NCBI GenBank assembly: GCA_964609895.1
Contig: CAZSTG010000003.1
Span: 7,574-71,573 of the forward strand
Origin: an uncultured Gammaproteobacteria bacterium
Lineage (GTDB): Bacteria > Patescibacteriota > Microgenomatia > UBA10105 > UBA927
Length of the DNA: 64,000 nt
Direction of reading: 5' to 3'
Shown here piece after piece: positions 21,279 to 64,000 of this stretch. The notes beneath the pieces are model-generated. The model searched no databases. It saw only the letters and a program-made list of their open reading frames with translations, and had not been told where the DNA came from. A program made the position numbers and the translations under genes. Numbering within the stretch: position 1 is the first letter of the stretch; every line of letters starts with the position of its first letter.

Positions 21279-21467
21279 TCTCCACAGACAGAAGGTTGAC
21301 AACTCCTCGATAACTTGGAACAATAGAAGTCTACCACGTGCGCAGCATTTCATTAATTGTTTCGTAATAACAGTGTTTGGTAGACTGTTCGTTCGCATAT
21401 AGTATATAGTTAAATAGTAGGATACTAAGTTACTGAGGACGGGTAACGAAATTTCACTACACAGTCT

Positions 21468-23441
21468 ATGGAAGAACTAAAAAAAATCACCATTGAAGAA
21501 ACAGCCCCGACGATACAAACGCAAGGAAAAAAGAAAAAGAAGTTTCCATGGAAAGCTCTCGGCATTCCGTTCGGCATATTTGCAGTTCTTATCATTCTCA
21601 TCGGCATCATGCTGTTGCCTCTCCGCGGTGTTGTTGCCAAGGCAAAGGGAATGACGACGGTCGGTCAGGAAGCAATGCAGGCAGTCAAAGACAAGGATTT
21701 GGCGCTTGTAAAAACCAAACTGAATGAAACACGGACAAAATTGACGGAATTGCAGGCGGAGTATAAGAAAGTGCTTCCATTAAAATACGTGCCGTTGTTG
21801 GGTGCATATATTGCAGACGGCGAACACGCAATCAACGCCGGTTTTGCCGTTCTTACCGCAGGGGACAAGGCAGTGGAGGCAATTGAACCTAATGCAGACC
21901 TGCTTGGATTAAAAGGTGGCAGCAAGACATCGTTTCTTGAAGGAACAGCAGAAGAAAGACTTCAATTTGCGGTAAAAACAATGAGTGCGCTTCTGCCGAA
22001 GATCAATGAAGTGGCCGCAAGTGTTGCTACCATGCAGCAGGAGCTGTCTGCCATTGATCCAAACCGGTATCCGGAAAAAATCGGCAAAACAGTCATTAGG
22101 TCAAAAATGGTCGGCGGATTTGCCGTGATCGATGAGATGGCAAATCTCTTTGTGAATGCACAGCCGCTTCTCATGAACCTGCCGTCTTTGTTGGGTGATC
22201 CGACAGATAAACGGTATCTGGTGTTGTTTCAAAACGATAAGGAGCTCAGATCTACCGGCGGTTTTATTACTGCCTATGCGCAGTTTCGGATGGTGAAGGG
22301 AAAACCGATCCTTGAGAAAGCAGATGATATTTATGCGCTGGATGCATCACTCACGAAAAAATTTGCAGCCCCCAGAGAAATTCTTACCTTTCACAAAGGT
22401 GTATATAACCTCAATATCAGAGACAGCAATCTGTCTCCAGATTTTAAAGTTTCCATGCAGCAATTCATGGATATGTATAACGTCACAGGTGGTAAGGAAA
22501 AAATCGATGGTGTGATTGCAGTGGACACACATGTACTCGTGAAGATGCTGGAGGTATTGGGACCGATCAATGTGTATGGTCGTGAATTCAGCGCCGTGAC
22601 GGATAAACGGTGTGATTGTCCGAAGGCCGTGTATGAACTTGAGGATTATTCCACCCGACCAGTTGGGTATGTCCGTGAGGCACGGAAGGATATTATCGGG
22701 GTGTTGTTGCAGCAGATACTGCGGATGGCACTCGGCGTGTCTCCGTCCAAGTACTGGGGTAATTTGTTCCAAGTATTAGTTGATGAAATTAACCAAAAGC
22801 ATGTGCTTGCCTACTTTCTCGATACAACAACTCAAAAGGCAGCCGAAGACTTTAATCTTGCGGGTCGCATCATGACTGCATCGGAAAGCGCGGCGATTCT
22901 CAAATATGAAGAAGGAAAAGGATGGGATTATCTGCACATCAATAACAGCAATATGGCGGGTGCGAAGTCTAATATGTTTGTGTCCAGCAAGGTGACGAAA
23001 GACACGACAGTAGAGGGGAACAAACTGACGACGAGGCTGACGATTGACTATAAGAATCCGTATCCAGGATCTGACTGCGGACTGGAAAGCGGCGGTTTGT
23101 GTCTGAACGCGCCGCTTCGGAACTGGGTGCGTGTGTATGTTCCCGCAGGAAGCACACTTGCCGAAAACAAGGGTGCCATATCGCCAAAGGATGGTGCAGC
23201 GGTGTCCATGGAAACCTATCAGAGTCTCGGAAAAACAATGTTCGAGGGATTTTTGATTGTCAATCCAATGGGCACAGCAAAGCTGGAACTGACCTACACA
23301 TCACCGGTGGCCGTGGACGGACAGTATAAACTGCTCATTCAAAAACAGGCAGGTACTGATGGTGAGGAATATATATTGAAATTGAACGGAAAACAGAAAA
23401 AAGATCTGCCTCTTGTCGGCGACACCGAGTTTATTTTTTAA
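21468..23441 (+). CDS. DUF4012 domain membrane-anchored protein
   Basis: 657 aa, one N-terminal TM helix. FQNDKELRSTGGFITAYA matches my recollection of the DUF4012 signature. Often found next to glycan clusters. Confidence 0.5.
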   Translation: MEELKKITIEETAPTIQTQGKKKKKFPWKALGIPFGIFAVLIILIGIMLLPLRGVVAKAKGMTTVGQEAMQAVKDKDLALVKTKLNETRTKLTELQAEYKKVLPLKYVPLLGAYIADGEHAINAGFAVLTAGDKAVEAIEPNADLLGLKGGSKTSFLEGTAEERLQFAVKTMSALLPKINEVAASVATMQQELSAIDPNRYPEKIGKTVIRSKMVGGFAVIDEMANLFVNAQPLLMNLPSLLGDPTDKRYLVLFQNDKELRSTGGFITAYAQFRMVKGKPILEKADDIYALDASLTKKFAAPREILTFHKGVYNLNIRDSNLSPDFKVSMQQFMDMYNVTGGKEKIDGVIAVDTHVLVKMLEVLGPINVYGREFSAVTDKRCDCPKAVYELEDYSTRPVGYVREARKDIIGVLLQQILRMALGVSPSKYWGNLFQVLVDEINQKHVLAYFLDTTTQKAAEDFNLAGRIMTASESAAILKYEEGKGWDYLHINNSNMAGAKSNMFVSSKVTKDTTVEGNKLTTRLTIDYKNPYPGSDCGLESGGLCLNAPLRNWVRVYVPAGSTLAENKGAISPKDGAAVSMETYQSLGKTMFEGFLIVNPMGTAKLELTYTSPVAVDGQYKLLIQKQAGTDGEEYILKLNGKQKKDLPLVGDTEFIF

Positions 23442-23448
23442 ACCGTGC

Positions 23449-24003
23449 ATGCATCATCTGCGGATAACCACATTGAATGCGTTTGTTCTAAAACGTAGGA
23501 ATGCCGGTGATTCAGATAAAGTTCTGACACTGTTTACAAAAACGACGGGAAAAGTCAGAGTGGTTGCCAAAGGAGTACGGAAAATAACGAGCCGTCGAGG
23601 TCCATACCTTGACGTCTTTAATGAAATCAGGATTACTTTGCATCAGGGAAAAACGTGGGATACGGTGTCTGAGGTGGACATGCTCGTATCAAGAAGAAAC
23701 GTGTATACCACATGGATGCGGATGCGTGCCGCGTATCTGATTGTTGAAGTGATCGACAGACTTTTACCTGACAGCGAGCCACAGCACGTGATATATGACC
23801 GACTTGGTGCCGTACTGACGGCAGTCGGAACGGCGAGCGACAGCGAAATAACTTCACTTCTGACGTCGTTTTTCAGTGGCGTACTGGAGGAACTCGGATA
23901 TGCCGCGCCAAACAAGGAATATGGCGAATTTTCAGAACTGATCGGGTATATTGAACGGATATCCGAGCGAAAAATCCGGAGTATGAAATTTTTTCTTTCC
24001 TAA
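23449..24003 (+). CDS. recO: DNA repair protein RecO (short form, no C-terminal Cys4 zinc motif)
   Basis: N-terminal OB-fold region FVLKRRNAGDSDKVLTLFTKTTGKVRVVAKGVRK aligns with E. coli RecO [34 protein letters not shown]. Only 185-196 aa. Confidence 0.65.
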   Translation: MHHLRITTLNAFVLKRRNAGDSDKVLTLFTKTTGKVRVVAKGVRKITSRRGPYLDVFNEIRITLHQGKTWDTVSEVDMLVSRRNVYTTWMRMRAAYLIVEVIDRLLPDSEPQHVIYDRLGAVLTAVGTASDSEITSLLTSFFSGVLEELGYAAPNKEYGEFSELIGYIERISERKIRSMKFFLS

Positions 24004-24009
24004 GTGATA

Positions 24010-24037
24010 TTGACAAAGAAGAAAAATGCACGATAAT
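24010..24037 (+). promoter_or_regulatory. sigma70-like promoter (TTGACA-N16-GATAAT) driving the glyS leader
   Basis: TTGACA at 24010-24015 and GATAAT at 24032-24037, read directly from sequence. Confidence 0.5.
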
Positions 24038-24045
24038 GAAAGGAG

Positions 24046-24193
24046 AACGCGTTGACAACCCTGGCAAGGTTTGAGCGGAAAAAAAAGAAATCAAGTGGGT
24101 ACAAGTCATTGGGATATCATGTTGTACCAAGCAGGGTGGAACCACGGGTCATACTCGTCCCTAGCATGTGTATGTGTGCGGGCGAGTTTTTTT
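24046..24193 (+). promoter_or_regulatory. T-box riboswitch-like leader (glycine specifier GGC-A candidate, compact Stem I, Stem III, antiterminator/terminator)
   Basis: GGCA at 24063-66. 7-bp hairpin GGTACAA/TTGTACC at 24098-24128 (Stem III position). T-box core AGGG-UGGAACC-ACG...CGU-CCC at 24133-24161 reproduces A1 / 7-nt UGGNACC bulge / A2 of the antiterminator. Overlapping terminator. 72 nt upstream of glyS. Confidence 0.5.
24154..24193 (+). terminator. intrinsic terminator of the glyS leader
   Basis: CTCGTCC...GGGCGAG, 7-bp stem including a G-U pair, followed by TTTTTTT (24187-24193). Confidence 0.5.
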
Positions 24194-24265
24194 ATGGCAA
24201 TCAAAGAAGTATACGCTGATGGAAAATTTTCTGCATGAGCGTGTACGATTTGATACAATAAATCT

Positions 24266-25582
24266 ATGACGAAGTTAGAGGAAATTATTGCACTCTGTAA
24301 ACGGCGCGGATTCGTGTATCCGACCAGTGATATCTATGGCGGTATCGGCGGATTTTATGATCTGGGACCGCAGGGAGTTGCCTTGACGCGGAATATCAAA
24401 GAGGCATGGTGGAAGGAAATGGTGACGAGCCGTGATGATGTGGTGGGACTTGATTCTGCAATTATTCTCAATCCAAAGACATGGGAAGCGTCAGGACATG
24501 TTGCCGCGTTTACCGATCCTCTGATTGAATGTAAACTCTGTCACAGCAGGCTTCGCGCAGATCAGGAAGATGAGATTGCCGCACACATTGCCTCTCATAA
24601 AACAAAAGGGGAACAAGATGTCATATTTACTGAACCTCGGCAATTTAATCTGCTTTTTAAAACATTTGTAGGTCCGGTAGAGGATTCAAAAAGTGTTGCA
24701 TACCTTCGTGGAGAAACGTGTCAGGGAATCTTCACCAATTTTAATAATATCGTAATGTCAAACCGCGTGAAGATTCCGTTCGGTATTGCGCAGATTGGGA
24801 AGGCATTCCGGAACGAAGTGACGCCGGGAAAATTCCTGTTTCGGGTTCGTGAATTCGAACAAATGGAACTTGAATATTTTGTTGAACCGAAAGATGCTGA
24901 CAGCGCGTTTGCCATGTGGAAAGAAAAACGGATGGCGTGGCACCTTTCCTTGGGTATTTCCAAGGAAAATATCAGATTACGGCAGCATGATCAGACGGAA
25001 CGGGCACATTACGCATCAGATTCTTGGGACATTGAGTATAATTTTCCGGAATGGGGTTTTAAAGAGCTTGAGGGACTTGCAAATCGTACAGATTATGACT
25101 TGAAAATACAGAGTAAATGGAGCGGTAAGGAATTGAAGGTAACGAATCAGGAAACAAAGGAAAGCTATTATCCATATGTTATCGAACCGTCGGTCGGCGT
25201 CACACGACTGATGCTTGCATTGTTATTTGAGGCATATACCAAAGACGGTGAACGAACTGTGTTGAAGTTCAAGCCCAGCCTTGCACCATACATGGCGGCA
25301 GTGTTTCCGCTGTTGCCAAATAAGGCGGAGCTTGTCACAAAAGCACGTGAGGTATACCTGATGCTGAAGGAAATATTTCCAACCACGTGGGATGACCGCG
25401 GTAACATAGGGAAACGATATCTTGCACAGGATGAAATCGGCACGCCGTGGTGTGTCACCATCGACTTCACCACGCTTGAAGATGGCGCCGTAACTATAAG
25501 AAATCGTGATACAACAACACAGGAACGTATTAGTGTACCTACTCTTGTTGACTATATTCATGCTCATAAACAATTGTCATAA
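24266..25582 (+). CDS. glyS: glycine--tRNA ligase, alpha2 (eukaryotic/archaeal-like) type
   Basis: MTKLEEIIALCKRRGFVYPTSDIYGGIGGFYDLGPQG N-terminus is diagnostic of class II dimeric GlyRS. 438 aa. Confidence 0.9.
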   Translation: MTKLEEIIALCKRRGFVYPTSDIYGGIGGFYDLGPQGVALTRNIKEAWWKEMVTSRDDVVGLDSAIILNPKTWEASGHVAAFTDPLIECKLCHSRLRADQEDEIAAHIASHKTKGEQDVIFTEPRQFNLLFKTFVGPVEDSKSVAYLRGETCQGIFTNFNNIVMSNRVKIPFGIAQIGKAFRNEVTPGKFLFRVREFEQMELEYFVEPKDADSAFAMWKEKRMAWHLSLGISKENIRLRQHDQTERAHYASDSWDIEYNFPEWGFKELEGLANRTDYDLKIQSKWSGKELKVTNQETKESYYPYVIEPSVGVTRLMLALLFEAYTKDGERTVLKFKPSLAPYMAAVFPLLPNKAELVTKAREVYLMLKEIFPTTWDDRGNIGKRYLAQDEIGTPWCVTIDFTTLEDGAVTIRNRDTTTQERISVPTLVDYIHAHKQLS

Positions 25583-29495: not shown

Positions 29496-29638
29496 TACAG
29501 TGATGGAGTAGCGTGTTTGTTTGGTGAATCACTGATGCTAGAAAATTGTCATACGAGAAAAATACTATAAGCTTCATTTAGCTTCAGTTTGATCATATAC
29601 ATAGCCGTGCGTGTCGTTCTTTTGATATAATAGAGTCC

Positions 29639-30808
29639 ATGATTTCTTGGCTAAAGAGCCTCTACCATTGGGTTGTTGCAGTAGCTGCACTAGTATACTT
29701 CAGGTTTCCTGCACGCCATCTTACAGTCATAGGCGTGACCGGTACAGACGGGAAAACCACTACCTCGACGCTTATCTATGAGATTCTGAAGGCCGCCGGA
29801 TACAAAACGTCGGTTATTACCACGGTACACGCAGTTATTGCAGGGAAATCCTATGATACCGGTTTTCATGTCACAACACCAAACGCTTTCTATGTGCAAA
29901 AATACCTGCGGGAAGCGGTCGATCACGGTGATACGCATGTTGTTTTGGAGACAACTTCTCATGCGCTTGCACAGTCACGCGTGCTAGGGATTCATTTTGC
30001 AGTTGGAGTACTCACCAATGTGACGCATGAACATCTGGATTGGCACAAAACATACGACCGGTATCTGATGGCAAAAATGAAACTGTTGTTTGCGTCCGAT
30101 ACAGCGGTTATCAATAAAGATGAGGGAGAACTGTATGCGCGTATTTCCCCGCTTCTTAGACGTCATAAACTTGTAACGTACGGACTCAGACGTCAGGCAA
30201 CCATAACGCCTGAAACACATCCGTTTGAAACTGCACTCCTCGGTGATTTTAATCAATATAATTGTCTGGCAGCAATTGCCGCGACAGGTCTGGTTGGTGT
30301 GTCAAAAGATGTGATAAAAAGGACAATCAAAGGATTTACCGGAATTCCCGGAAGAATGGAAATTATTTCGGTAAAACCGTGCCGCGTAATTGTTGATTTT
30401 GCCCATACGCCAAACGCGATTGATAAGGCGCTCAAAACCGCGCGGGATATGACGAAGGGCAGGCTCATTCATGTGTTTGGGAGCGCAGGACTCAGGGATC
30501 GGACGAAGCGTCCGTATATGGGGAAATTTTCCGCCCAGTATGCAGACAGCATTGTGTTGACGGAAGAAGACTTTCGAACAGAAAATGTGGAAACTATCAT
30601 GGATGAAATTGCTTCAGGCATCCCTATATATAAAGATGTGCACCGATTTGCTCGTCGTGAAGACGCGATTAAGTTTGCGTTGTCTGATGTAAAAAAAGAT
30701 GATACCGTCATCATCACAGGCAAAGGGCATGAAAAGAGTCTCTGTCGCGGCAACACGGAATATCCGTGGAGTGATCAGGAAGCAGTGAAAAAACTTTTGA
30801 AAAAGTGA
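29639..30808 (+). CDS. murE: Mur ligase, MurE-like, lacking the N-terminal UDP-binding domain
   Basis: P-loop GVTGTDGKTTT at residue 33. TSHALAQSRV, TNVTHEHLDWH, DFAHTPNAI and C-terminal IITGKGHE match MurE. Only 20 aa precede the P-loop, and the 143-nt upstream gap cannot encode domain 1. Confidence 0.65.
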   Translation: MISWLKSLYHWVVAVAALVYFRFPARHLTVIGVTGTDGKTTTSTLIYEILKAAGYKTSVITTVHAVIAGKSYDTGFHVTTPNAFYVQKYLREAVDHGDTHVVLETTSHALAQSRVLGIHFAVGVLTNVTHEHLDWHKTYDRYLMAKMKLLFASDTAVINKDEGELYARISPLLRRHKLVTYGLRRQATITPETHPFETALLGDFNQYNCLAAIAATGLVGVSKDVIKRTIKGFTGIPGRMEIISVKPCRVIVDFAHTPNAIDKALKTARDMTKGRLIHVFGSAGLRDRTKRPYMGKFSAQYADSIVLTEEDFRTENVETIMDEIASGIPIYKDVHRFARREDAIKFALSDVKKDDTVIITGKGHEKSLCRGNTEYPWSDQEAVKKLLKK

Positions 30809-62173: not shown

Positions 62174-62286
62174 ATAACAATTACATACCATGATGAAACT
62201 AATACAACCGAGATTTTTCTCGTTCATCCTTTCGAGGATATTGTTGTATTAGTTTTCTGCAACTTGGCCGTATAAAAAATGTTATA

Positions 62287-62321: not shown

Positions 62322-62499
62322 AGCAAAAAAGCGTCATCATCTGTCATCAGCAGAGAATCGCTTGAATAAAGAACGTCTGTGCAAAGACAAGTAGAATATT
62401 CCGGGTAAGCCCGAAACAGCTGTCATTAAGAAGCAATAAAGGTGGTACCACGAACATCCGTTCGTCCTTTGTGTAATAATAAAGGAGGACGGTTTTTTT
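62322..62499 (+). promoter_or_regulatory. T-box riboswitch leader of ileS (antiterminator with 7-nt UGGUACC bulge; AUC-A specifier candidates upstream)
   Basis: A1 AAAGG/CCUUU (62438-42 and 62466-70). Bulge TGGTACC 62443-49. A2 ACGAAC/GUUCGU (62450-55 and 62460-65) with loop AUCC. ATCA at about 62335-62348. Mutually exclusive terminator 62458-62499. Confidence 0.65.
62458..62499 (+). terminator. intrinsic terminator of the ileS leader; its 3' arm contains the ileS SD (AAAGGAGG)
   Basis: CCGTTC(g)TCCTTT / AAAGGAGGACGG, 12-bp stem with one bulge, loop GTGTAATAAT, then 7 T (62493-62499). Confidence 0.6.
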
Positions 62500-64000
62500 A
62501 TGGCAACACTACATATCGTATCAGGTGAAAAAACGAACATTCCCGCATGGGAGCATGATGTCCTCACGTTCTGGGATGAAACACATGCGTTTGAACAGTC
62601 CATCTCCTCTCGTCCTGCGGATAAACAATACGTATTCTACGACGGCCCTCCGTTTGCAACTGGCCTTCCGCATTACGGACATATACTTGCTTCCACCATC
62701 AAGGATGTGATTCCCCGCTATTTCACCATGAAGGGATACCGCGTAGATCGGGTCTGGGGATGGGATTGCCATGGCGTGCCAATTGAAAACATGATTGAAA
62801 AAGAACTCGGACTTACGGGTGGCAAAAAAGGCATTGAGGAGTTGGGTATCGGGAAATTCAACGACGCATGCCGCGATGCGATTCTGCGGTTTGACAAGGA
62901 ATGGGAAAAAGTGGTCAGGCGCATCGGTCGGTGGGTTGACTTCAAACATTCCTACAAAACCATGGACAAGACCTATATGGAATCCGTATGGTGGGCTTTC
63001 AAATCATTGTTTGATAAAGGGCTCGTGTATGAAGGGCGGAAAGTTATTTTGTATTGTCCGCGCTGCGCAACCCCGCTTTCCAATTTCGAAATCGCAATGG
63101 ACAACAGCTACAGGGATGTGGAAGAAGCGTCAACCACCTATAAATTCAAAGTCACAGGAGATACTGATACATATTTCCTTGCATGGTCGACAACACCGTG
63201 GACAAAACTTGTTACGACGGCACTTGCCGTGAATCCTGATTTGACATATGTGTTTGCAAAACAGGGCAATGAAACATATATATTGGCTGAGTCGCGACTC
63301 GCATCGCTTGATGAGAGGCCGTATGAAATCATAAAAAAGGTGAAAGGCTCGGATCTGCACGGCATGCATTATGAACCGCTGTATGATTTTTATCCGGAAC
63401 GGACAAAAGAGGAAACAGCGTTTATTGTTGTGGCGGATACATATGTCACGGCAACTGAGGGAACGGGAATCGTAACGCTTGCTGTGTATGGAGAAGATGA
63501 TTACCGCGTCATGAAAAATCATCATGTGCAGCTTGCGGAACATGTGGATACGGACGGCAAATTGAAAAAAGAAGTAACACCGTGGGCAGGGATGTACATC
63601 CTGAAGGCAAATCCGCTCATTGATGAGGATTTGAAAAAGCGCGGTCTGATATACAAGGAGGCGCGGATCACACACAGTATACCGACGTGCTACCGATGTG
63701 AAACCCGTTTGTATTATGCGCCCGTTCCCGCGTGGTTTATTGATATACAAAAAATAAAGCCGCAGCTGATGGAACAGAATCAACATATCAACTGGTATCC
63801 TTCGTATTTAAAAGAAGGACGGTTTGGAAAAGGGCTTGAACAGGCACCGGACTGGAATGTCTCACGGAGCAGATATTGGGGAACGCCGATGCCGATATGG
63901 GTACACACAGATGCTGACGGCAACGTGACACGACGAATCATCGGGTCTGTTGAGGAACTCAAAACATGGGCGGTTGATTCCGAATCAGTCAAAGACATCA
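62500..64000 (+). CDS. ileS: isoleucine--tRNA ligase (5' 500 codons; continues beyond the window)
   Basis: Not in the ORF track because there is no stop in the window. Translated here: MATLHIVSGEKTNIPAWEHDVLTFWDETHAF...YDGPPFATGLPHYGHIL (HIGH-class motif, IleRS-type)...WDCHGVPIE. The frame stays open to nt 64000. Confidence 0.85.
   Translation, partial: MATLHIVSGEKTNIPAWEHDVLTFWDETHAFEQSISSRPADKQYVFYDGPPFATGLPHYGHILASTIKDVIPRYFTMKGYRVDRVWGWDCHGVPIENMIEKELGLTGGKKGIEELGIGKFNDACRDAILRFDKEWEKVVRRIGRWVDFKHSYKTMDKTYMESVWWAFKSLFDKGLVYEGRKVILYCPRCATPLSNFEIAMDNSYRDVEEASTTYKFKVTGDTDTYFLAWSTTPWTKLVTTALAVNPDLTYVFAKQGNETYILAESRLASLDERPYEIIKKVKGSDLHGMHYEPLYDFYPERTKEETAFIVVADTYVTATEGTGIVTLAVYGEDDYRVMKNHHVQLAEHVDTDGKLKKEVTPWAGMYILKANPLIDEDLKKRGLIYKEARITHSIPTCYRCETRLYYAPVPAWFIDIQKIKPQLMEQNQHINWYPSYLKEGRFGKGLEQAPDWNVSRSRYWGTPMPIWVHTDADGNVTRRIIGSVEELKTWAVDSESVKDI

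Follow-up and report, generated by a model that had tools for sequence, protein, structure and literature searches.

Within a 64,000-nucleotide stretch of contig CAZSTG010000003.1 (assembly GCA_964609895.1; hereafter the window, with positions counted from its first letter), the gene glyS for an alpha2-type glycine--tRNA ligase (24266–25582; NCBIfam NF003211, 579 bits) is preceded by a leader which, judging from its sequence, is almost certainly a glycine T-box. This element (24045–24163) has its own promoter and intrinsic terminator, and it belongs to a conserved family of compact leaders in which a very short Stem I presents the specifier codon in its apical loop and a plain linker takes the place of Stem II. 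The window features from recO to glyS described here are on the forward (+) strand. We consider it probable that in this genome the leader would act as a transcription attenuator responsive to tRNA-Gly. The compact form is not described in a 2024 survey of glycyl T-boxes (PMC11404447), and a literature search found no mention of T-boxes together with the Candidate Phyla Radiation (CPR) or Patescibacteria, the lineage to which the host belongs; that search covered older comparative work incompletely, and a prior mention is possible.

Structure of the leader

Transcription would begin from a promoter, P1, at 24010–24037 (TTGACA-16-GATAAT, 11 of 12 consensus matches), with a predicted start site near 24044, about 54 nt ahead of Stem III. 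The ultrashort Stem I (24048–24077) is made up of a C-stem, a kink-turn (K-turn), a 4-bp helix and a 7-nt specifier loop. In the C-stem 24048–50 pairs with 24075–77; the K-turn comprises the bulge GUU (24051–53), tandem G.A/A.G pairs (24054–55 with 24073–74) and a C.U apposition (24056 with 24072), and the helix joins AACC (24057–60) to GGUU (24068–71). The apical loop, CUGGCAA (24061–67), has the format Y-U-NNN-R-N and so resembles an anticodon loop with a glycine codon at its centre. Read from the sequence, the specifier is GGC, followed by a conserved purine, A (24063–24066, 35 nt 5' of Stem III), and it agrees with the gene that the leader would regulate, as expected of a T-box. Because P1 lies immediately upstream of Stem I, there is no further RNA from which a longer stem could be built.

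The position of Stem II and Stem IIA/B is occupied by an A-rich, single-stranded linker of 16 nt (24077–24092, GGAAAAAAAAGAAAUC). It holds no hairpin, as in class II T-boxes, which are glycine-specific and have a linker for Stem II. It leads into the 5' part of the discriminator (24093–24130), where the RRRxG-Stem III-AA motif, as defined in PMC7583486, is complete: AAGUG is followed by Stem III (24098–24128; GGUACAA...UUGUACC, 7 bp with a 17-nt loop that contains UGGGA) and then by AA. The antiterminator (24133–24162) consists of A1 (AGGG/CCCU), the bulge UGGAACC, which fits the UGGNACC consensus, and A2 (ACGGG/CUCGU), i.e., AGGG at 24133–24136, UGGAACC at 24137–24143, ACGGG at 24144–24148, the loop UCAUA, CUCGU at 24154–24158 and CCCU at 24159–24162. 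This core is aligned at high posterior probability both by Rfam and by a family model, R1, which is described below.

The intrinsic terminator (24153–24193) is a hairpin from A24153 to U24187 (ACUCGUCCC / GGGCGAGU) followed by a U7 run ending at 24193. The 3' strands of A2 and A1 are used again in its 5' arm, and since terminator and antiterminator both use 24153–24162, the two folds are mutually exclusive, as in a T-box switch. The terminator (RNAfold of 24150–24195) reaches − 16.4 kcal/mol, against − 7.6 kcal/mol for the antiterminator; a consensus terminator scanner did not see it because its loop exceeds 8 nt. The ATG of a mini open reading frame (ORF) of 14 codons (24194–24238; MAIKEVYADGKFSA and a stop) stands directly after the U-run, at 24194, a coordinate which corrects the earlier one.

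An earlier note, made from the letters of the window, had anticipated much of this anatomy. The T-box core with A1, bulge and A2, the antiterminator overlapping a terminator with U7, the Stem III-like hairpin GGTACAA/TTGTACC and the GGCA upstream of it were all found at the positions proposed, and the ultrashort Stem I, which had been suggested from some 50 nt between start site and Stem III, is borne out by family covariation and model searches. Structure prediction, which the note had put forward as a check, returns the terminator and antiterminator folds and fails for Stem I when the whole leader is folded by minimum free energy.

A family of compact glycine T-boxes

An Rfam scan of the whole window at gathering thresholds gives no match of any kind, and the Rfam search that had been recommended as a check succeeds with permissive filters, under which RF00230 aligns end to end with 24043–24165 at 39.3 bits (E 1.8e-7), against a gathering score of 93. 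The score is lost in two places: in the Stem I interior 78 model positions are reduced to 9 nt, and in Stem II/IIA-B 40 positions are reduced to 1 nt. The long Stem I of class II, with its specifier internal loop and distal interdigitated T-loop platform, is therefore missing, as are the S-turn within Stem II and the Stem IIA/B pseudoknot of class III. The short Stem I with apical specifier that characterises class III is present, as the 4-bp helix and 7-nt loop, and has covariation support. When 11 compact leaders were run against Rfam, not one reached the gathering score, whereas long-Stem-I glyS leaders from Bacillota gave 94–110 bits (n = 6). Compact leaders thus fall consistently under the Rfam threshold, and T-box regulation in CPR and some Clostridia is currently invisible in annotations.

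Metagenome contigs were scanned with a pattern that imposed no base pairing (UGA, 6 nt, UGGCA, 6 nt, GAGC, 40–70 nt, GGUGGAACC). This returned 35 loci. True leaders with this architecture make up 19 of them, roughly 13 being distinct; 15 matches were rejected as chance occurrences within coding regions, and the leader of an Exiguobacterium glyQ gene (L101) was rejected from the family, having an ordinary long Stem I upstream and scoring 44 bits with R1. R1 itself, a covariance model, was derived from 13 compact leaders, with the window leader and L101 excluded. It matches the window leader over its full length (24045–24163) at 69.4 bits (E 2e-16 for the window as a whole), true members scoring 68–105 bits and long-Stem-I T-boxes 31–50 bits. 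As defined by R1, the family has a K-turn, a 4–5 bp helix, a Y-U-GGC-A-N loop, GAGC, a linker of at most 35 nt, RRRxG-Stem III-AA and a UGGAACC antiterminator, all of which are found in the window leader.

Base pairing was counted on a 13-sequence alignment without the window leader and L101. Standard pairs fill 97% of cells, compared with 82% in shuffles, and the observed value was reached by none of 500 shuffles; when the 3' partners were slid by 1–3 columns as a control, pairing fell to 34–52%. The Stem I helix is 94% paired, and all four of its pairs change on both sides, with 3–4 pair types each. Loop positions 1 and 7 are Y and A/C, respectively, in all true members, though the search pattern had left them free, and position 12.28, beside the tandem G.A pairs, mostly lacks pairing, which is what a K-turn predicts (15-sequence alignment). 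A chance resemblance to a T-box is ruled out by this family-level covariation.

True members span a GC content of 28–59%, and in the nine distinct leaders where the downstream gene is readable it is an alpha2-type glyS. The hosts include Patescibacteria-group metagenome-assembled genomes (MAGs; L089, L107), a Candidatus Shapirobacteria (L100), Clostridia MAGs (L115, L121) and human-gut genomes (L092, L093). In most members the unit is complete and comprises a sigma-70-like promoter, compact T-box, U-run terminator, and the Shine-Dalgarno (SD) sequence and ATG of alpha2 glyS, and in nine of the other members the − 35 box lies 39–47 nt 5' of the K-turn UGA. In L100, by contrast, the SD is sequestered and there is no U-run. 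Hairpin-free linkers of 10–16 nt occur in L089, L100, L102, L106, L111, L113 and L115. In the Clostridia-type and gut leaders L092, L093, L119 and L121 the linker between Stem I and Stem III is 31–32 nt long and holds an extra small hairpin, possibly a Stem II in vestigial or minimal form; the CPR-type leaders are without it.

Stem III also differs between the two groups. It is enlarged in the CPR-type leaders (the window leader, L089, L106, L100, L095), with 7–8 bp and a 12–17-nt loop (24105–24121 in the window) that always contains UGGA, in the form UGGGA in the window, whereas Clostridia-type members have a tiny Stem III without UGGA. The same tetranucleotide in the T-box bulge pairs with tRNA 3'-UCCA, and the loop copy might act as another NCCA site, as a T-loop-like contact or as a decoy.

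The closest homologue of the window leader comes from a groundwater 0.1-µm filter fraction, where two compact glycine T-boxes stand in tandem behind one promoter (L095:299–537, minus strand). The upstream copy, L095a, has in common with the window leader GCGUUGA...GAGCG, ACCACG and ACUCGUCCCU...CGGGCGAGUUUUUU. The tandem precedes a 56-aa hydrophobic ORF rather than a GlyRS gene, and its upstream copy is almost without Stem III.

The basal pair of A2

At the base of A2 the window leader has A24144–U24158 instead of the usual G.U wobble, which has been described, for the T-boxes studied, as the primary sensor that detects the 3'-aminoacyl group sterically (PMC7583486). The substitution stems from the variant ACCACG, which the earlier note had seen in both T-boxes of the window and taken for a lineage-specific form, with no mention that it changes the sensor pair. 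The variant is indeed in both: GGTGGNACCRCG occurs exactly twice in the window (24135 and 62441), against 0.04 expected, each time with ACCACG. Across the family (15-sequence alignment) the basal pair is G.U in 11 leaders, A-U in three and G-C in one. The A-U form is present in both leaders of the window (glyS and ileS), L089, L106 and L095a, and absent from L100, L107 and the downstream tandem copy L095b. As it is found in four CPR leaders and not in all CPR members, it is a trait of a sub-lineage. For the steric-sieve model, the A-U and G-C pairs that occur naturally instead of G.U are ready-made tests.

Relation to described T-box classes

The published scheme has four classes: class I with a long Stem I and Stem II; class II, which is glycine-specific, with a long Stem I and a single-stranded linker; class III with a short Stem I, an apical specifier and a required Stem II; and class IV with an intermediate Stem I and Stem II (PMC10482949). 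As read from their sequences, the compact leaders combine the Stem I of class III with the linker of class II, most of them with a transcription terminator, and fall outside this scheme.

The likeness to class II, as represented by glyQS of Bacillus subtilis and Geobacillus (PMC10482949, PMC7583486), extends to glycine specificity, GGC, the UGGA bulge and the K-turn, as well as to the linker in place of Stem II and IIA/B, the RRRxG-Stem III-AA motif and transcription control by terminator and antiterminator. However, Stem I of the window leader has about 30 nt as against about 90, and it lacks the specifier internal loop with S-turn, the AG bulge and the distal loop, and hence the interdigitated T-loop platform that would receive the tRNA elbow. 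It also differs in the specifier, which is in an apical 7-nt loop, and in having A-U instead of G.U.

With the ultrashort Stem I of class III, known from ileS of Nocardia farcinica and Mycobacterium (Sherwood 2015, cited in PMC7583486), it shares the short, platform-less Stem I, the apical specifier and the basal K-turn. Class III needs Stem II, with its S-turn purine string, and the Stem IIA/B pseudoknot, neither of which the window element has, and its members are isoleucine-specific, mostly from Actinobacteria and mostly translational, whereas the compact family is glycine-specific and comes from CPR and Clostridia, and the window leader has a U-run terminator. The apical loop also differs, with 7 nt in the window as against 5–6 nt in class III.

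The earlier note had contrasted the alpha2-type GlyRS downstream, which is confirmed, with the glyQS of classic glycine T-boxes. That contrast is not unusual; a T-box ahead of an alpha2 GlyRS gene is already known and not new. The glyS T-box of Staphylococcus aureus (PMC4574755, PMC9177973) likewise controls an alpha2-type GlyRS gene and has no Stem II; unlike in the window leader, its Stem I is full-length and its antiterminator carries a lineage-specific insertion, stem Sa.

Taken jointly, these comparisons could point to a fifth natural T-box architecture, a reading that we put forward tentatively and at slightly less than an even chance. Its members would hold tRNA by two base-paired contacts, i.e., the codon loop kissing the GCC anticodon and the UGGA bulge pairing with the 3' end, without elbow platform or Stem II; in the CPR subgroup the UGGA of the Stem III loop might add a third contact, and A-U would replace the sensor pair. 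In current models the tRNA is held either by a long Stem I platform on its elbow or, where Stem I is short, by a Stem II anticodon clamp. A natural, recurrent class that lacks both, yet carries a transcription terminator, would define a minimal tRNA-sensing unit, would test the claim that co-transcriptional switches need a fast-binding platform, and would provide a scaffold of about 120 nt for engineering.

Insertion of the cassette upstream of glyS

The leader is part of a cassette of about 246 nt (23994–24239) which comprises P1, the compact T-box, the terminator and the 14-codon ORF and replaces about 25 nt of L124 (GCA_049287205.1), the closest relative at about 80% nucleotide identity. 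From the sequence comparison it reads as a recent, lineage-specific insertion between recO (23413–24003; NCBIfam TIGR00613 RecO, E 2e-22), the stop codon of which marks its left edge, and the conserved glyS promoter. Eight relatives are syntenic (L081 to L087, L124 and L128, with L082 and L083 having the same GlyRS; GlyRS identity 64% to 91%, and 72–91% for the closest of them) and share the order Bac_transf, DUF4012, recO, glyS, hypothetical, mraZ, rsmH. In all eight the recO stop and the glyS ATG range from overlapping to 45 nt apart, compared with 262 nt in the window. By blastn against L124, L087 and L081, homology extends over 21463–23993 and resumes at 24240–24248 (24240 for L124). An independent assembly from another sequencing run, L088, has an identical leader and cassette, the sole other copy, so the insertion is not an assembly artefact.

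The conserved promoter, P2, is an ancestral extended − 10 box (TGaTACAAT, 24251–24259) that ends 6 nt 5' of the glyS ATG. The string TTTG(A/G)TACAAT, 6–7 nt and ATG is conserved in L082–L087, L124 and the window, while the remaining spacer is not. With its − 10 box so placed, the first transcribed nucleotide would be the A of the ATG and the glyS mRNA would be leaderless. A TGnTA(C/T)AAT box at the same distance of 6–7 nt also precedes the ATG of the gene that starts at 29639 (window 29621–29641), which implies a leaderless mRNA there too.

The 3' end of the mini-ORF (ATGGAAAATTTTCT, 24219–24232) and that of recO (ATGAAATTTTTTCT, 23983–23996) form a 14-nt repeat of 79% identity, which may be a footprint of the insertion event; as a target-site duplication the resemblance was not significant by local alignment (p ~ 0.1). 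The junction of U-run and ATG in the mini-ORF, UUUUUUUAUGGCAA, is identical to that of the ileS leader elsewhere in the window.

As an insertion, the cassette offers a rare snapshot of a riboswitch cassette installed before an existing promoter. If the compact leaders do form a fifth architecture of the kind outlined above, T-boxes would be regulatory cassettes that are native to CPR bacteria and still spreading there, as the recent insertion suggests.

Predicted mechanism and alternative readings

In the mechanism that we propose, P1 would be transcribed from about 24044 and the nascent RNA would fold into the K-turn and 4-bp hairpin, whose 7-nt, anticodon-loop-like loop would offer GGC-A to the GCC anticodon of tRNA-Gly. 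There would be neither a distal T-loop platform on which the tRNA elbow could dock nor a Stem II clamping the duplex of codon and anticodon; the A-rich linker would run straight into the canonical discriminator. With uncharged tRNA, the 3'-UCCA would pair with UGGA, stack on A1 and stabilise the antiterminator, allowing read-through into glyS; with charged tRNA, the more stable terminator would form. A possible rationale for so minimal a design is that GGC:GCC pairs more strongly than any other codon and anticodon; this strength is also the accepted explanation for glycine T-boxes dispensing with Stem II (PMC7583486). Complexes of two 7-nt anticodon-type loops are, in addition, far stabler than free trinucleotide pairing.

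The specificity logic is consistent, in that a GGC specifier and a UGGA bulge precede glyS, while the neighbouring ileS leader has AUC and UGGU. Bacterial tRNA-Gly carries U73, and a tRNA with U73 is what the window bulge (UGGA, with N = A) predicts. The glyS gene has no SD, and neither do 33 of the 44 window genes; a missing SD was therefore rejected as a block to glyS expression from read-through RNA, which should be feasible given that SD-less starts are usual in this genome. With the cassette upstream of a retained P2, the T-box would probably add a component responsive to tRNA-Gly charging to constitutive expression.

Several observations weigh against a working attenuator. The leader is absent from all eight syntenic relatives, none of which is matched by R1, and as the relatives are without it and the only other copy is identical, there is no evidence of purifying selection within the lineage. 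P2 lies downstream of the terminator and could make the switch partly redundant, and the A-U pair might weaken discrimination between charged and uncharged tRNA. Transcriptional T-boxes are said to need the long Stem I platform, with Stem II essential if Stem I is truncated (PMC7583486, PMC10482949). Folded whole by minimum free energy, the leader fails to show Stem I and does no better than shuffles (z = − 0.22), although thermodynamic folding alone is uninformative for the whole leader. The window holds no tRNA genes, and thus no tRNA-Gly. The earlier note had named the lack of the leader in relatives as grounds for abandoning its proposal, and that lack is, taken literally, complete. We nevertheless keep the T-box reading: given that other lineages conserve this design, the absence in relatives is a sign of recent insertion and not of a false positive.

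As the main alternative, an intact T-box could have arrived by very recent horizontal transfer or insertion and be effectively neutral, with glyS driven by the ancestral leaderless P2 and little coming from the T-box transcript. The confinement of the insertion to this species-level lineage and the full conservation of P2 3' of the terminator would fit such a history, as would the stray 14-codon ORF, which looks as if copied from another locus, the unrelated small ORF behind the closest homologue, L095a, and the A-U sensor pair. We think it unlikely, since every element is intact, from the 11/12 promoter through the K-turn, specifier loop, RRRxG-AA and bulge to the U7 terminator, and the specifier fits the gene behind the cassette, which would not be expected of a random insertion. 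Moreover, the same design is the sole glyS leader in other CPR and Clostridia genomes, and A-U recurs in L089 and L106, in which no control region other than the leader is visible.

Decay of a long-Stem-I glycine T-box, with the Stem I interior deleted and tRNA binding lost, would account for an Rfam score far below threshold with 78 Stem I positions missing, and deletion of the Stem I platform does disable studied T-boxes (PMC7583486). Random deletion, however, would not reproduce a geometry of K-turn, 4-bp helix and 7-nt loop that recurs in about 13 distinct leaders from genomes of 28–59% GC, where each helix pair has undergone compensatory changes, the Y-U-GGC-A-(A/C) loop is conserved and promoters sit directly 5' of the K-turn; we regard this origin as very improbable. 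Hardly credible, finally, is the idea that the hairpin and U-run serve mainly as a terminator or insulator for recO, or that the cassette controls the mini-ORF and not glyS. The terminator does lie 150–190 nt past the recO stop, and the mini-ORF ATG directly follows the U-run just as the ileS ATG does in the second leader, but P1 sits between recO and the terminator, the relatives need no such terminator, the mini-ORF is without a convincing SD and the next gene in other family members is glyS. Attenuation of glyS by tRNA-Gly remains the reading that we prefer.

Host genome and a second T-box

By protein sequence the host of the window is placed in the Microgenomates group of CPR/Patescibacteria. 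The 90%-identity cluster of its GlyRS includes an NCBI MAG labelled Microgenomates group bacterium, and the next GlyRS relatives are from Gottesmanbacteria (64–69%) and Curtissbacteria (~ 59%). A GlyRS-based scan of GTDB genomes was saturated on universally conserved peptides; its best match was 57% identical and the true relatives were missed. In one Gottesmanbacteria MAG (L127:142–2227) glyS follows 13 nt after a serine hydroxymethyltransferase (glyA-like) gene, a pair that would form an operon for supplying and charging glycine, with no T-box.

The second leader (62325–62472), which scores a sub-threshold 31.1 bits with Rfam, precedes an IleRS-type gene with its ATG at 62500 (corrected coordinate). 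Its short Stem I carries AUC in a 7-nt loop (UCAUCAG) and is accompanied by a Stem II/IIA-B-like region, a Stem III cut to about 3 bp, a UGGU bulge and the ACCACG variant. The 3' arm of its terminator holds the SD AGGAGG (AAAGGAGGACGG) and its U7 run abuts the ATG, so this leader could act on both transcription and translation. It resembles class III but, unlike that class, carries a terminator. Upstream of its promoter region is a perfect 13-nt inverted repeat (62196–62257; AAACTAATACAAC ... GTTGTATTAGTTT), which probably serves as terminator for the gene before it or as an operator.

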